Assembly: GCF_963921235.1 (NCBI RefSeq)
Contig: NC_086097.1
Span: 160,768,001-160,832,000 of the forward strand
DNA from: Mobula hypostoma
Lineage: Eukaryota
Direction of reading: 5' to 3'
DNA length: 64,000 nt
The notes under the pieces are model-generated. The model ran no database searches. It saw only the letters and a program-made list of their open reading frames with translations, and was not told where the DNA came from. Of the stretch, positions 5,836 to 64,000 are shown in pieces; the first letter of the stretch is position 1, and each line of letters opens with the position of its first letter. Both the position numbers and the translations under genes were made by a program.

Positions 5836-8670
5836 AGACCATAAGACATAGGAGCAGAATTAGGCCATTTAGCCCACTGAGTCTGCTCCGCTGTACCATC
5901 ATGGCTGATCCTAGATCCCGCACAACCCCATCCACCTTTGTTCTCGCCATATCATTTGATTCCCTGACCAATCAGGAAGCCATTAACTTCCGCCTTAAAT
6001 ATACCGCACTCTGTGGCAGAGCTTTCCACAGATTTACTACTCTCTGGCTAAAAAAAAAATTCTCCTTACCTCTATTTTAAAAGATCGTCCCTCAATTTGG
6101 AGGCCGTGCCCTCTAGTTCTGGATACCCCCAACATAGGTAACATCTCTCCACATCCACCTAATTTAGTCATTCTAATATGCCCACACATTCTTCTAAATT
6201 ACAGTGAGTAAAGGCTCAAAGCTGCCAAAAGCTCTTCATATGTTATCCCTTCATCCCCAGACTCATCCTCATGAACCTCCTCTGGACTCTGTCCAATGAC
6301 AACACATCCTTTTTGAGATATGGGGCCCAAAACTGATGACAATACTCCAAGTGCAGCATGTCTGGTGTCTTATAAAGCCTCAGCATTATCTTGTTTTTAT
6401 ACTCTATCCCCGTTGAAATAAATGCCAACATTGCATTTGCCTTCTTTACTACAGACTTAACCAATAAATTAACCTTCTGGGAATCCTGCAGAAGGACTCC
6501 CAAGTCCCTCTGGACCTTTGATATTTGAATTTTCTCTCCATTTAGATAGTCCACACTATTGTTCCTTTTACCAAAATGCATTATCATACATTTCTCAACA
6601 CTGTATTCCATCTGCCACTTTTTTGCCCATCCTTCCAATTTGTCTAAGTCCTGCTGCAATATCATTGATTCCTCAGCACTTCCTACCCCTCCACCTATCT
6701 TCATATCATCTGCAAACTTTGCCACAAAGGCATCAATTCCATTATCTAAATTATTGACAAACAATGTGAAAAGTAGTGCCAAAACTGACCCCTGAGAAAC
6801 ACCACTGACCCCCAATCAGAAAAAGCCCCTTTTATTCCCACTCACTGTCTCCTGTCTGTCAGCCATATAATGCCATAGGATTTTACCTTGTTAAGCAGCA
6901 TAGGATTTTATCAAAATGCCTTCTGAAAATCCAGTTGCATCCACTGCCTCTCCTTTGTCCACCTTGGTTGTTTCCTCCTTGAAGAACCGTAACAGATTTG
7001 TCAGGCATGATTTCCCTTTACAGAAACCATGCTGACTTTTGACTTATTTTGTCATTAGTCTCCAAGTACCTCAAAATCCATCCTTAATAATAGACTCCAA
7101 CACTTTCCCACCCAATGAGATCAAGCTAACTGGCCTATAATTTTCTTTCTTTTGCCTTCCTCCCTTCTTAAAGAGTGGAGTAACATTTGCAATTTTTCAG
7201 TCCTCCGGGACAAGGCCAGAATTAAGTGGTTCTTGAAAGATCATGACCAATGCATCTGTTATCTCTTCGGCAACCTCTGTCAGGACTCTGGGATATAGTC
7301 CATCTGGTCCAGGTGACTTATCCACCTTAAGACCTTTGATTTTCCTAGTAATTTTTCCTTTGTAATAGCAATGGCACTTACGGACCTCTAGCGCACCGCT
7401 AGTGTCTTCCACAATGAAAACTGATGCAAAGCACTCATTAAGTTCATCTGCCATTTCTTAGACCCGCAATACTACCTCACCAGCTTCATGTTCCAGTGGT
7501 CCAATATAAACTCTCACCTCCCTTTTAAAGCTTCCAAATCATCTGACTTCCTACTCACTTTTGCTACCTTATATGGCCTTTCCTTGGGTTTTATGCAGTC
7601 CTTGACTTCCCTTGTCAGTCACTGTTGCCTACCCCTGTCATTTGAGAACAACTTCTTCTGTGGGACATATCTATCTTGCACCTTGTGAACTGTTCCTAGA
7701 AACTTAAGCCATTTCTACTCTGCCATCCAGTATCCTCCTTCAGTTCACCTGGGCAAGCTCTTCTCTCATGCCTCTGTAATTCCCTTTATTCCATTCTGGT
7801 ACTGATATATGTGACGTGCTTCTCTCTCTCAAATTGCAGTATAAATTCAATCATATTATGATCACTGTTCCCCTAAGGGTTCCTTTACATTAAGCTCCCT
7901 AATATGATCTGGATTATTACACAACACCCAGTCGAAGATGGCCTTTCTCCTAGTAGGTTCAAGCACAAGCTGCTCTAGAAAGCCATCTCGTAGGCATTCA
8001 CCAAATTCCCTCTCTTGCGATCTGACACCAACCTGATTTTCGTATTCCCCTTGCATATTGAAGACCCCATTACAATTGTGATGTTACCCTTATTACACAC
8101 CTTTTCCAGCTCACTTTGCAATCTCAACCCCACATTTGGAGGCCTATATATGATTCCCACATTTGGAGGCCTATATATGATTCCCACAATGTTTTTTTTT
8201 ACCCTTGCAGTTTCTTAACTCCACCCACAAAGATTTGACATTTTCTGGACCCTATGTCATCTCTGTTTGAAGATGTAATTCCATCTCTTGCTTAACAGAG
8301 CCACACTACCACCTATGCCTTCCTGTCTGTCCTTTAAAATGCAAATTATATCCTTTGATGTTAAGCTCCCAATTACGGCCTTCTTTCAGCCACGACTCAG
8401 TGATGCCCACAACATCATACCAGCCAAACTCTACTTGCGCCATGAGTTTGTCCACCTTATTCAGAATGCTACATGCATTGACCTTCAGTCCTGCATTCTT
8501 CGCCCTTTTGAATTTTGCCGCTGTGGTACGATTTAACTCTTTGCTCTATCTGCATTTGTACTCAATCATTGGCTTGTCCTCCTTACATTCATGTTATACC
8601 TATCATCTACTTGTAAACTTGCTGGCTCATTCTCAACTCCATCATCCTGGTACTCATCCCCCTGCCATAT
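5836..8670 (-). mobile_element. CR1-clade LINE, endonuclease through RT to 3' tail, decayed
   Basis: ORF 6243-6815 GVSQGSVLALLFTLFVNNLD..AKFADDMKIGG; KSPGPDGLYPRVL; GIIYRPPN; tail gaccataagacatagg. Confidence 0.9.
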
Positions 8671-9854: not shown

Positions 9855-9965
9855 ATGCAGTTCTCAAATACCTATCTCTTTTTTTCAGTGGTTCAACAGC
9901 TCCTTTCGGCACACTTTTATGGAGTTTGTGAGAAACAGCAGTGGCTATTGTCCAGCACAACATAA
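9855..9965 (+). CDS. Candidate upstream ORF (36 aa) overlapping the conserved uORF in another frame
   Basis: ATG 9855 to TAA 9963-9965, MQFSNTYLFFSVVQQLLSAHFYGVCEKQQWLLSSTT; exonic only if the acceptor at 9812-9813 is used. Confidence 0.4.
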   Translation: MQFSNTYLFFSVVQQLLSAHFYGVCEKQQWLLSSTT

Positions 9966-9984
9966 CATCTTTGCAGACAAGTAA
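9919..9984 (+). CDS. Peptide uORF (21 aa) in the PTP4A 5' leader, like the PRL Mg2+-sensitive uORF
   Basis: ATG GAG..GAC AAG TAA = MEFVRNSSGYCPAQHNIFADK; the C-x-AQH-x-IFADK end matches my recollection of the mammalian PTP4A1/2 uORF peptide; lies downstream of both candidate splice acceptors. Confidence 0.75.
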   Translation: MEFVRNSSGYCPAQHNIFADK

Positions 9985-10327
9985 ACCTAAGGAGGAACCT
10001 GCCAGCTAACAAATTTGAGTGAAAAGTATCCAAGTGATAACAGACTTGGCCTGTTTGGTATCTCCAGTTGTATTCTTATTGCTTTGCAATGTATCTCCAA
10101 ATGGGGTGACTGAACTGTTGAATGTAGATGCATTTATAGTTTAAAGGAGAGCGTAGAGGAAGAAGCAGAGACCAATTTTATGAACAATTTAAAGAAGAAT
10201 ATTTCATTCGCTTGCTGCAATAAGAAACCTACAATCCTATGAAGACAGTACACATAAATTAGTTTGGAGATATTCTGATCATTTACAGCCACTACTAACC
10301 ACCTTCTGTGCCACTGGTTCCATCCCC

Positions 10328-10432
10328 ATGGCCCGCATGAATCGCCCTGCTCCTGTGGAAGTTTCTTACAAACACATGAGATTTCTCATCACCCACAATC
10401 CTACAAATGCTACATTGGGCGTATTTATAGAG
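10328..10432 (+). CDS. PTP4A3: PRL/PTP4A protein tyrosine phosphatase type IVA, coding exon 1 (aa 1-35)
   Basis: [35 protein letters not shown] then donor GTGAGT; family certain, paralogue assignment uncertain. Confidence 0.95.
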
Positions 10433-12077: not shown

Positions 12078-12170
12078 GAGCTACGGAAATATGGTGTAAC
12101 CACGCTTGTGAGAGTATGTGATACCACATATGATAAGAGGCCACTGGAGAGTGAGGGCATTGTAGTAATA
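12078..12170 (+). CDS. PTP4A3: PTP4A coding exon 2 (aa 36-66)
   Basis: Acceptor ttccttcctt[33 protein letters not shown] (redox Cys49); donor GTAAGT; 93 nt. Confidence 0.95.
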
Positions 12171-17689: not shown

Positions 17690-18913
17690 AGGCTAACCAG
17701 TATTGGCATTTAATGGATCTGGGGTTGAGAGGGTGAACAGCTTTAAGTTCCTTAGCATAAACATCACCGAGGATCTCACATGGTGTGTACATCCTGACTG
17801 TGTGGTGAAAAATGCACAACAGCACCTCTTTCACCTCAGATGGTTGAAGAAGTTTGGTATGGGACCCCAAATCCTAAGAACTTTCTATAGGGGCACAAAT
17901 GAAAGCATCCTGACTGGCTGCGTCGCTGCCTGGTATGGGAACTGTACTTCCCTCAATTGCAGGACTTTACAGAGAATGGTGCGGACAGCCTAGCACATCT
18001 GTCGATGTGAACTTCCCACTATTCAGGACATTTACAAAGACAGATATGCAAAAAGGGCTGAAAGGATCATTGGGGACTTGAGTCACTCCAACCACAAACT
18101 GTTCCATCTGCTACCATTTGGGAAATGGTACTGTAGCATAAAAGCCAGGACCATAAGACCATAAAATATGGGAGCAGACGTAGGCCAGTCGGCCCATTGA
18201 GTCTGCTCCACCATTCAATCATGGGCTGATCCAATTCTTCCAGTCATCCCCACTCCCCTGCCTTCTCCTCATACCCTTTGATGTCCTGGCTAATCAAGAA
18301 CCTATCTATCTCTGCCTTAATTGTGCCCAATGACTTGGCCTTCAAAGCCGCTAGTGGCAAGAAATTCCACAGATTTACCACCCTTTGACTAAAGTAATTT
18401 CTCTGCACCTCTGTTCTAAATGGACATCCTACAATCCTGAAGTTGTGCCCTCTTGTCCTAGACTCCCCTACCACTTTGCCATACCTAATCTGTTCAGGCC
18501 TTTTAACATTCAGGATGTTTCTACGAGATCCCCCCTCATTTTCCTGAACTCCAGGGAATACAGCCCAAGAGCTGCCAGACGTTCCTCATAGGGTAATCTT
18601 TTCATTCCCGGAATCACTCTCATGAATCTTCTCTGAATGCTCTCCAATGTCAGTATATCCTATCTAAAATAAGGAGCCCAAAACTGCGCACAATACTCCA
18701 AGCTCTTGAGACACCAGATCATCAGACTGATTAATTCATGCTGATACAATTCTATTTCTGTGTTATATTGACTGTCCCGTTGTACATACTATTTATGATT
18801 AAATACTATAAATTGCACATTTAGACAGAGGTGTAGTGTAAAGATTTTTGCTACTCATGAATATCAAGGATGTACTGTAAATAATAAAGTCAATTCAATT
18901 CAATTCAATTCAA
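17690..18913 (+). mobile_element. Rex1/Babar-like LINE 3' part, interrupted by CR1 (~18150-18700, minus)
   Basis: VERVNSFKFLSINITEDLTW..FYRGTNESILTGCVAAWYG; AATAAA plus (CAATT)n tail near 18880-18913. Confidence 0.8.
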
Positions 18914-26394: not shown

Positions 26395-26525
26395 GATTGG
26401 CCATTTGATGATGGTGATCCACCTCCAAGCAAAATTGTGGATGATTGGCTAAATTTACTTAAAACTAAGTTTATGGAAGAACCTGGAAGCTGTGTAGCAG
26501 TCCATTGTGTTGCTGGCCTTGGGAG
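26395..26525 (+). CDS. PTP4A3: PTP4A coding exon 3 (aa 67-110; WPFDD loop and P-loop)
   Basis: [44 protein letters not shown] (catalytic Cys104); acceptor ttttaAG, donor GTATGT; 131 nt. Confidence 0.97.
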
Positions 26526-27258: not shown

Positions 27259-27333
27259 GGCCCCTGTACTGGTAGCAGTTGCTCTTATCGAATGTGGAAT
27301 GAAGTATGAAGATGCCATTCAATTCATCCGGCA
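27259..27333 (+). CDS. PTP4A3: PTP4A coding exon 4 (aa 111-135)
   Basis: [25 protein letters not shown]; phase 2-2, 75 nt; acceptor tatgcAG, donor GTAAGT. Confidence 0.95.
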
Positions 27334-28376: not shown

Positions 28377-28494
28377 AAAACGTAGAGGTGCCATTAACAG
28401 CAAACAGCTCTCATACTTGGAAAAATATCGGCCAAAGATGAGACTTCGTTTCAAGGACCCTAATAATCACAAGAACAGTTGTGCCATCGTATGA
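28377..28494 (+). CDS. PTP4A3: PTP4A coding exon 5 (aa 136-173; polybasic region, CaaX, stop)
   Basis: Strong polypyrimidine tract + aaac[43 protein letters not shown]; total CDS 522 nt. Confidence 0.96.
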
Positions 28495-62219: not shown

Positions 62220-64000
62220 AAGTGAGTCCATTGTTTGTAGGAACATTTCAATGATGGGACAAGTGAAGTTGAATGAAGTTATCCACTTTGGTTCAAGAGC
62301 CAGATGGTTGAGAGGTAATAACTGTTCCTGAACCTGGTGGTGTCAATCCTGAGGCTCCTGTACCTTCTTCCTGATGGTAACCGTGAGAAGACCACATGTC
62401 TTGCGTGTTGGTGAGTCCCTGATAATGGACGCTGCTTTCCTGCAACAGCACTTCATATAGATGTGCTCTGGTGAAGAGGTCTTTACTCATGATGCATTGG
62501 GCCATATCCACTACTTATAGTAGGATTTTTCATTCAAGGCCAATGGTGTCTCCACACAAAGCTCTGATGCAACCAGTCAATATACACTCCACTACACTTC
62601 TATAGGAGTTTGTCAAAGTTTCAGACGTCACGCTGAATCTCTGCGAACTCCTAAGGAAGTAGAGGCACTGCTGTGCTTTCTTCATAATTACATTTACGTG
62701 CTGGGCCCAGGGAAAGTCCTCCAAAATAATAACACCAAGGATTTTAAAGTTGCTGACCCTCTCTATCTCTGATCCTCCGATGGGGACTGCCACATAGACC
62801 TTTGCTGACATTGAGTGAGAGGTTGTTATAGTGGCACCATTCAGCCAGATTTTCAATCTCCCTCCGAAATGCTGTTTTGTCTTCACCTTTGGTTCAATCC
62901 ACAACAGTGGTGTCATCAGCAAACTAGAATATGGTATTGGAGCTGTGCTCAGCCACACAGTCTTAAGTGTAAAGCGAGTAGAGCAGGGGGCTAAGCACAC
63001 AGCCCTGTGGTGCACCTGTGCTGACGGGCAACATGGAGGAGATGTTGTTGCCAATCTGAACTGACTGGGTCTGCAAGTGAAGAAATCGAAGGTCCAATTG
63101 CCCAAAGAGGTACTGAAGCCAAGATCTTGAAGCTTATTGATTAGTTTTGAGGGATGATAGTATTGAATGCAGAGCTGTAGTTGATAAAGGGCATCCTGAT
63201 GTATGTATGTATCTTTGCTGCCTAGATGTTCCAGGGTTCAGTGAAGAGCCTGTGAGTTGGCATCTACTGTTGACCTGGTGCACTGAAAAACAAATTGGAG
63301 TGAATCCAAATCGCTTCTCAGGCAGGAGTGGATATGTTTCATCACCAACCTCTCAAAGCACTTATCATTGTGGATGTAAGTGCTGATGGACGATAGTCAT
63401 TGAGCCAGGTTACCACGGTCTTCTTAGCACGCTTGAAGCAGGTGGGAACGTCAGACTGCCAAACCGAGAGGTAGGCATCTCAGTGAAGACTCCAGCCAGT
63501 TGATTAGCACAGTTTTTAGTACTTGGCCAGATATCCCACCTGGGCTGGATGTATTTTGTGGGTTCACCCTTCTGAAGGCCCACTCACATGTCAGCCTCAG
63601 AGACTGAAATCACAGGATCATTGTGGGTGGTGGGTGTTCGTGATGTTTCTTCCATGTCTTGATGGTCAAAGTGACATCAAAGACATTGGGCTCAACTGGA
63701 AACAAAGCCCTGGTGTTGCCAAAGGTGCTTGATTTAACTTTATAAGAAGTAATAGTATACAAGCCTTGCCGCAACTGTCGAGTATCCTTCATTGATTCAT
63801 GTTTAGCCCAGAGCTGTCACTTTGCCCATGAGATGGCTTTCTAGAGATCGTACCTGGACCTCTTGTAATTTTCTTGGTCACCAGACTTGAATGCCTCTGA
63901 TCTAGCCCTCAGCAGATTGCAGCTCTTATGGTCATTCTGGGCTTCTCATTGCAGAAGATTGAATGATTTTGTGGAGACACTCTCATCTACAACTATATTA
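62220..64000 (-). mobile_element. Rex1/Babar-like LINE RT region, decayed, running off the window end
   Basis: IERVSNFKILGVIILED..KKAQQCLYFLRS..YRSVVECILTGCI; frameshifted GAPQGCVL and KFADD. Confidence 0.85.

Follow-up and report, generated by a model that had tools for sequence, protein, structure and literature searches.

A probable PTP4A3 counterpart of the conserved PTP4A1 and PTP4A2 upstream open reading frame in the ray Mobula hypostoma

A Mg2+-sensitive upstream open reading frame (uORF) in PTP4A2, the gene of PRL-2, is said to have been described by Hardy in PNAS in 2019. The human and mouse PTP4A1 peptides, 44 aa long and ending in DLYADK, appear in a supplement of 2006 (PMC1402274), and the PTP4A1 uORF peptide is described as conserved from human to fish (PMC3914846). 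The human PTP4A1 uORF represses in a sequence-dependent manner, and frameshifting it raises reporter output (PMC7530721); the human PTP4A1 leader is about sevenfold repressive and resists eIF2 phosphorylation (PMC4383229). Depletion of Mg2+ raises PRL-1/2 translation via the uORF, a response that is abolished by scrambling (PMC11855589, PMC10083557). In mammals the Mg2+ response needs AMPK/mTORC2 (PMC11855589), which means that even in mammals the peptide has not been established as a direct Mg2+ sensor. A PTP4A2 uORF is annotated as coding by GENCODE, and HLA-I peptides have been reported (PMC13275300).

In the literature that could be searched, which excludes most subscription papers, we found no report of this uORF for PTP4A3 or for any cartilaginous fish, and the Mg2+ response is attributed there to PRL-1/2 only. 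The accessible parts of five papers (PMC11890864, PMC9082881, PMC8728433, PMC10967961 and PMC10538695) hold nothing on a PRL-3 uORF, and no PTP4A uORF occurs among the rows listed of the Mackowiak 2015 supplements (9 of 16 files). The element, its age and its link to Mg2+ in mammals (PRL-1/2) are already known; what may be new, as far as this search reaches, is an intact, constrained copy of the uORF in PTP4A3. The path from Mg2+ status to PRL dose in vertebrate cells is known in outline only, and the arrest motif is unmapped in the accessible literature. A third paralogue, diverged yet intact, would offer a ready mutant panel for that motif.

The host gene and its paralogues

The window, by which we mean the whole stretch of 64,000 nt of M. 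hypostoma DNA that was analysed, carries a PRL phosphatase gene on its plus strand. Its five coding parts, joined by GT-AG introns, lie at 10328..10432 (main ATG at 10328, with C at -3), 12078..12170 (93 nt, from spliced contigs), 26395..26525 (131 nt, with the WPFDD loop and the catalytic HCxxGxxR motif), 27259..27333 (75 nt) and 28377..28494 (the last, with the CAAX box CAIV at its end), and together encode 173 aa with a C-terminal CAAX box. In a 33-row tree of 30 proteins, chosen by name from 120 listed, and three ray genes, the window protein groups with 10/10 named PTP4A3 rows (support 98/91), while the ray gene on contig C2 falls with PTP4A1 (95/88) and that on C76 with PTP4A2 (98/95). 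Its nearest neighbour in the tree, with 90% identity, is a catshark protein named 'IVA 3-like', the name that NCBI gives to its shark relatives. By this grouping the gene is PTP4A3 and not a fourth paralogue. When the genome was searched with two different exons, the same four places were found (the window, C2, C76 and C75), giving three intron-bearing PTP4A genes and one processed pseudogene, on C75. The original prediction had allowed for a PTP4A3-like gene or a new paralogue, and it is the first of these that stands.

Proteins recorded under the names Mobula and Hemitrygon differ hardly at all from the PTP4A2 product encoded on C76. The pseudogene (C75:6263.8-6264.3 kb, minus strand; L004/L009) is a 5'-truncated, intronless PTP4A2 retrocopy that matches the C76 gene; it has an open 164-codon frame, its catalytic HCV reads RCV, and it holds no part of the uORF exon. 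Each of the three PTP4A contigs has one ADGRB N-terminal exon (compared with ADGRB3 chains alone), the copy on C1 lying 2.8 Mb off the window, and KHDRBS-type matches occur on C1 and C2 only. One ADGRB gene on each PTP4A contig fits the three-gene paralogon in which the human PTP4A genes presumably lie together with ADGRB and KHDRBS paralogues.

The ray PTP4A3 protein retains C49, D72, C104, L108, R110 and R138; we take D72, C104, L108, R110 and R138 to be residues needed for CNNM binding. Beside the WPFDD loop (26395-26525), the ray protein and its catshark relative have Asp74, at a position that is Ala in PTP4A3 of frog and otter, and this residue may have a bearing on CNNM binding or catalysis. 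Elsewhere in the window, LINE-type retroelement fragments lie at 6243-6815, 17697-17993 and 62530-63237 (Pfam RVT_1 and two ALKBH8_N), and no Pfam family was found in 9/12 long window frames scanned.

The uORF and its two splice forms

Positions 9919..9984 of the plus strand translate to MEFVRNSSGYCPAQHNIFADK followed by a TAA stop, forming a 21-codon uORF whose AUG has U at -3 and G at +4 and whose stop is separated from the main ATG by 343 nt. The first coding exon of PTP4A3 (9889..10432, plus strand) comprises 439 nt of leader and 105 nt of CDS, and is preceded by a polypyrimidine tract and an AG acceptor (9871..9888, plus strand). The same strand of the leader also holds ten open codons in the uORF frame (9889..9918), which would be translated solely in the 37-codon form described below, a Met-Gly-stop mini-uORF (10101..10109) 116 nt past the uORF stop, and a 20-codon uORF (10180..10242) that is not conserved and served as an internal negative control. 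On the way from the uORF to the main ATG the leader has five more AUGs.

Four of 22 listed sequencing runs were examined, one per organism; that they are RNA is a guess, and their contigs are spliced. No difference was observed between run X4 and the window; X9 and X11 are 95-99% alike and X15 is 90-95% alike. In all four, the cover of the contigs starts at 9889 and breaks off at the donor that follows 10432, to continue from 12078 (GT..AG). A single contig joins uORF, main ATG and next exon in X4, X9 and X15; X11 has two contigs, between which 9977-9993 is uncovered. Since the contigs of all four runs join the uORF exon to 12078, the uORF is exonic and shares one exon with the main start. The intact ATG-to-TAA frame, its predicted distance of about 340 nt from the main ATG in the same exon, and its retention in the mRNA were all confirmed in this way. 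The spacing between acceptor and uAUG is 30 nt in 6/7 loci compared, the exception being a teleost locus (L042).

The 21-mer is the short, internal-AUG form of a uORF that, in one splice form, spans two exons and 37 codons. The 21-aa peptide originally described thus has its ORF, but it is not the only form. In X15, the first coding exon follows an exon outside the window that ends at C1:160651431 (L016:1523), across an intron of 126,457 nt. The last codons of this exon, in the uORF frame, are an ATG and five more (M-S-R-R-R-A), after which comes a GT donor, and genome and X15 differ there by one synonymous base of 23 searched. In X4, X9 and X11 it follows another exon outside the window, ending at C1:160705441 (L010:1530) across an intron of 72,447 nt. 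In that exon an in-frame stop stands 12 codons ahead of the junction and is followed by no further ATG in this frame, so that the 21-codon form alone is possible with it; X4, the run most like the window, did not show the 37-codon splice. The arrangement of ATG, five codons and GT donor occurs upstream in all three ray paralogues, at C2:90414984 in PTP4A1 and at C76:7861084 in PTP4A2, the latter a predicted exon end inside a CpG island that has 4/6 residues in common with a lamprey product (P0205). Met stands at the upstream position in 41/85 fetched uORF products, in P0205 and in human PTP4A1. All in-frame uORF AUGs of the three ray PTP4A genes are in weak context, with U at -3 in all six.

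Several further features of these exons were observed. The exon region at L016:1350-1523 (C1:160651258-160651431) contains TGACG motifs that we assume to be CRE/ATF-like, and a 27-codon uORF in another frame, the stop of which overlaps the ATG of the 37-codon uORF. The exon at L010:1307-1530 is AT-rich, and its final 224 nt hold five short AUG ORFs, each of which closes before the junction. Exon 2 of PTP4A1 has a tandem NAGNAG-like acceptor (L002:1091-1099; also at the L003 acceptor), and, as some fetched products have the first Gln and others lack it, both acceptors are probably used, with the uORF frame kept. In the first intron of PTP4A2 (L022-L023, C76 at about 7823.6-7828 kb), a GC-rich region resembles, by eye, an LTR-retrotransposon gag-pol on the opposite strand. 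A TRSAMSQH match was rejected as PTP4A2 exon 1, as it has no donor and lies beside the LTR element.

Another reading makes the uORF a second cistron, encoding a trans-acting microprotein of 37 aa (44 aa in mammals), rather than a brake in cis. The PTP4A1 uORF product is annotated as a protein by NCBI, the coding annotation and HLA-I peptides of PTP4A2 cited above point in the same direction, and the N-terminal extension is conserved within PTP4A1. However, paralogues vary greatly in the extension but not in position or length, repression in cis has been reported for PTP4A1 (PMC7530721), and no Pfam family was found for 4/4 uORF peptide forms scanned. We regard a trans-acting product as very improbable, and it would in any case be compatible with a repressor in cis.

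Homology, selection and age

On sequence grounds, the window uORF is almost certainly homologous to the conserved-peptide uORF of PTP4A1 and PTP4A2. Ray PTP4A1 (L002) and ray PTP4A2 (L003) each have a 21-codon uORF with its ATG 30 nt into the first coding exon, and 12/21 residues are identical across all three ray peptides. The window holds 1049 ATG-ORFs of 15-60 aa. When these are compared with the ray PTP4A1 peptide, the uORF scores 77 and the runner-up 28, while the others average 13.3 (sd 3.4), and the resemblance is not due to chance. The predicted alignment to the PTP4A1/2 uORFs therefore holds, in score, in length, in offset and in residues. The ending IFADK that had been proposed for the mammalian peptide does not: it is in no fetched sequence, human PTP4A1 having DLYADK and a PTP4A2-type locus SILADK. 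The expectation of a conserved C-terminus and a variable N-terminus is correct between paralogues but fails within PTP4A1, where residues 1-15 are nearly fixed and 16-21 are the most variable. Searched at the DNA level with the uORF, the genome gave no match other than the uORF itself, and the paralogues were reached through the CDS.

The residues common to ray PTP4A3, PTP4A1, PTP4A2 and lamprey are Y/F10, C11, A13, Q14, H15, A/V19, D20 and K21. Six residues of the ray PTP4A3 peptide (R5, N6, S8, G9, P12 and N16) are absent from 25/25 distinct fetched cores; two of these represent the changes Q12P and D9G, at positions that are otherwise Q in 25/25 and D/E in 25/25 of the cores, and S8 is common to the ray PTP4A3 and ray PTP4A2 peptides. 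The length of 21 codons is found in 25/25 distinct full-length cores, and is 22 in the teleost L042. On every feature that could be tested here, the ray PTP4A3 uORF fits, by comparison of sequences, the PRL-1/2 uORF family.

Between paralogue pairs, pN/pS of the uORF is 0.27, 0.29 and 0.23 (Fisher p 0.001, 0.002 and 0.008), with pS of 0.70-0.72 versus pN of 0.19-0.20, computed over the 20 codons after the ATG as raw proportions uncorrected for multiple hits. The other two frames have stops in at least two paralogues. By this measure the peptide is under purifying selection between paralogues. Comparison with orthologues is shallower, as the three relatives are close (90-99% alike). Among them, at least 3/96 sites vary in 9889-9984 versus at least 35/343 in the remaining leader (p 0.038), and, among the differences listed, at least 2/77 non-synonymous sites vary in 9889-9984 (p 0.042) and at least 3/66 sites in the 21-codon ORF alone (p 0.17); further differences in exon 9889-10432 have no listed position (2 in X9, 3 in X11 and 4 in X15). 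The uORF changes listed in the relatives are one synonymous and two non-synonymous (D20N in X9 and K21E in X15); N20 and E21 also occur in PTP4A1-type cores, in 1/25 and 7/25. In the control uORF at 10180-10242, the ATG reads ATA in 3/3 relatives, and at least 6 sites vary in 63 nt.

Nucleotide conservation is high among PTP4A1 orthologues, and the stretch could in principle be kept as RNA, with the ORF incidental to a Mg2+ riboswitch-like structure for which a weak 8-bp consensus hairpin might be adduced. The energy of this hairpin is -5.39 kcal/mol, its covariation term is +0.14, and 4/8 of its pairs are broken in 2/7 sequences. Folding z-scores of 4/4 stretches are 0.64, 0.80, -0.07 and 0.97, Rfam, searched up to E 1, gave no match, and substitutions are biased to synonymous sites. 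A conserved, covarying RNA structure was rejected as the cause of conservation on the z-scores, the covariation and Rfam, and we give this explanation the least credence of all.

With respect to the distribution of the element, two profile searches yielded 53 and 32 proteins, nearly all PTP4A1-type and many bearing the NCBI name 'uncharacterized LOC128125822 homolog'. The fetched uORF products come from mammals, birds, reptiles, amphibians and teleosts, together with one lamprey product of 36 aa (LOC142924643; P0205, XP_075923389.1). By these sequences the element predates the split of sharks and bony fishes, as had been predicted; the prediction was an understatement, since the lamprey product, already annotated by NCBI, makes the element older still, and its antiquity was known. 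The lamprey product would also place the element before PTP4A3 as a separate gene. No PTP4A3-type product is among the 85 fetched, an absence that is uninformative because PTP4A2-type products are almost absent as well. A HMMER scan gave 3 matches, none a PTP4A3-type uORF product and one a chance match to a repeat protein. In several vertebrate genomes (proteins P0045, P0099, P0056, P0070 and P0160), gene predictors have joined the uORF to the PTP4A protein, reading it either in its own frame or in a shifted one; these models are annotation artefacts to which the coding-like conservation of the uORF has given rise.

One metagenome scan provided nine vertebrate PTP4A loci. The two PTP4A1 loci that extend far enough upstream (L039, L040) have an intact uORF, as do the PTP4A2-type loci L041 (typed on 32 residues and so not firmly), L042 and L045 (partial); in L038 and L043 the upstream sequence is too short for a uORF. 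A profile of seven uORFs, which found L045 at E 7.5e-10 as a control, detected none in the PTP4A3 loci L037 (mammal-type, 720-nt leader) and L044 (teleost-type, 1.7 kb). L037 reaches just 145 nt upstream of its Met-Gly-stop, where the uORF end would show in 4/5 loci, and in L044 the uORF may sit in a further exon. These two incomplete leaders suggest that PTP4A3 of bony vertebrates may have lost the uORF. A candidate decayed remnant in L037 (C-C-Q-A-G-G-Q-H) was rejected: nhmmer found no match in that locus, and the pairwise DNA score was 25.5 versus a shuffle mean of 21.8 and maximum of 34.5. The Met-Gly-stop mini-uORF lies 101-150 nt past the uORF stop in the three ray genes and in L039 and L040, the bony-vertebrate PTP4A1 loci, and it is also present in L037; by chance it occurs in 9 to 30 of 2000 shuffles per leader. 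It was not found upstream in 6/9 metagenome loci (L038 and L041-L045), some of them short. At 10101-10109 it shows no change in the relatives among the differences listed, and we found no mention of it in the accessible literature on PTP4A leaders.

One may ask whether the uORF is a decaying relic, an ancestral leftover whose likeness among rays results from slow evolution and splice-proximal constraint. The non-synonymous share of the changes listed among the relatives (2/3), the p of 0.17 for the 21-codon ORF, the lack of detection in L037 and L044 and the start of the element only 30 nt from the acceptor would agree with such a fate. A relic, however, would hardly have kept start, stop, frame and length intact since the divergence from PTP4A1/2, nor an upstream ATG in phase 126 kb away, which is present in a second organism as well, and the low pN relative to pS between paralogues also speaks against it. 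We consider decay improbable.

A stronger competitor, which we nevertheless hold to be rather unlikely, is that the uORF is translated and represses PRL-3 by generic effects, namely leaky scanning, reinitiation at Met-Gly-stop, resistance to eIF2 phosphorylation or nonsense-mediated decay, while the diverged peptide no longer stalls ribosomes or answers to Mg2+. Q12P, D9G and the four other unique residues would be natural under such a loss, the human PTP4A1 leader combines strong repression with resistance to eIF2 phosphorylation (PMC4383229), and the mini-uORF is kept even in the mammal-type PTP4A3 leader in which the long uORF is undetected. Nonsense-mediated decay is conceivable because the uORF stop lies 448 nt before the exon junction. 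Yet C11, A13, Q14, H15, A19-D20-K21 and the length of 21 codons are retained, with pN/pS of about 0.28 against both paralogues, beyond what a generic uORF would need, and the nearby 20-codon uORF, which is not conserved, is without its ATG in 3/3 relatives.

A possible mechanism and its known counterparts

Taking these data together, and arguing by analogy with PRL-1/2, we think it probable that the window uORF is the PTP4A3 copy of a PTP4A uORF that predates the PTP4A1/2/3 duplications, and that it acts as a translated, peptide-dependent repressor. As part of this explanation, the uORF would still be under selection in the ray. By homology with PRL-1/2, some scanning ribosomes would start at the weak uAUG(s) and make the peptide. 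By virtue of its sequence, with a core of Y/F-C-x-A-Q-H followed by A/V-D-K at the stop, the nascent peptide would then pause the ribosome on the stop codon or close to it, and the paused ribosome, with the queue behind it, would keep others from reaching the main AUG, 343 nt further on. The uORF stop is 63 nt, or about two footprints, downstream of the internal AUG, and the 21-codon spacing would suit a queue that sets a ribosome over this weak AUG. How strongly the main ORF is repressed would depend on which upstream exon is used, the one giving two in-frame AUGs and the other a single AUG. Since there are five further AUGs before the main ATG, repression need not depend on the window uORF, and since R5, N6, S8, G9, P12 and N16 are in none of the 25 cores, the ray peptide may stall less or respond differently.

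We are evenly divided on a further step, again by analogy, in which the block would ease as cellular Mg2+/energy falls, and more PRL-3 would bind CNNM and restore Mg2+. Such relief at low Mg2+/energy would perhaps act through AMPK/mTORC2 and not through direct binding. More speculatively, all three vertebrate PRL genes might have begun with a two-AUG, two-exon, Mg2+-responsive arrest uORF and a Met-Gly-stop. According to this speculation, which we find somewhat doubtful, cartilaginous fish would have kept a working, sequence-diverged and exon-tunable PRL-3 copy, and bony vertebrates would have lost theirs, uncoupling the metastasis-associated PRL-3 from Mg2+ feedback. If this is true, nature would have supplied in the ray peptide a series of mutants (Q12P, D9G) by which the motif can be narrowed to Y/F-C-x-A-Q-H...A-D-K with a fixed spacing of 21 codons; and if mammalian PTP4A3 lacks the element, this would help to explain why Mg2+-dependent translation has been described for PRL-1/2 only.

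A close counterpart is the PTP4A1 uORF or uPEP (Crowe 2006, NM_003463_1; LOC128125822 homolog; the CPuORF of Takahashi 2020), which shares with the ray PTP4A3 uORF the equivalent exon, the 30-nt offset, the 21-codon core, the in-frame Met six codons before the junction, the U at -3 and the downstream Met-Gly-stop. Over the exon-2 part, 17/31 residues are identical between the two ray uORFs. The ray PTP4A3 uORF differs in its six unseen core residues and in its stop, TAA instead of TGA; whereas mammalian PTP4A1 has a further upstream Met (44 aa), ray PTP4A3 has a second upstream exon that drops the extension. Repression has been reported for the human PTP4A1 uORF and is predicted for the ray PTP4A3 uORF. 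The PTP4A2 uORF (c1riboseqorf55) has the core C-x-A-Q-H and A/V-D-K at the stop (L003, L041, L042 and L045), as does ray PTP4A3, but in bony vertebrates its N-terminal half differs from the ray PTP4A3 peptide. The lamprey product P0205, from outside the jawed vertebrates, has the upstream Met, the internal M-E-F, V4 and the C-terminal ADK in common with the window peptide. Metabolite-responsive arrest-peptide uORFs with ribosome queuing are also known from AMD1 (MAGDIS), AZIN1 and the fungal arginine attenuator peptide. These have different ligands, and no sequence relation to the ray uORF is expected; the likeness to them would lie, by analogy, in a weak start, a conserved peptide and a fixed spacing to the stop.
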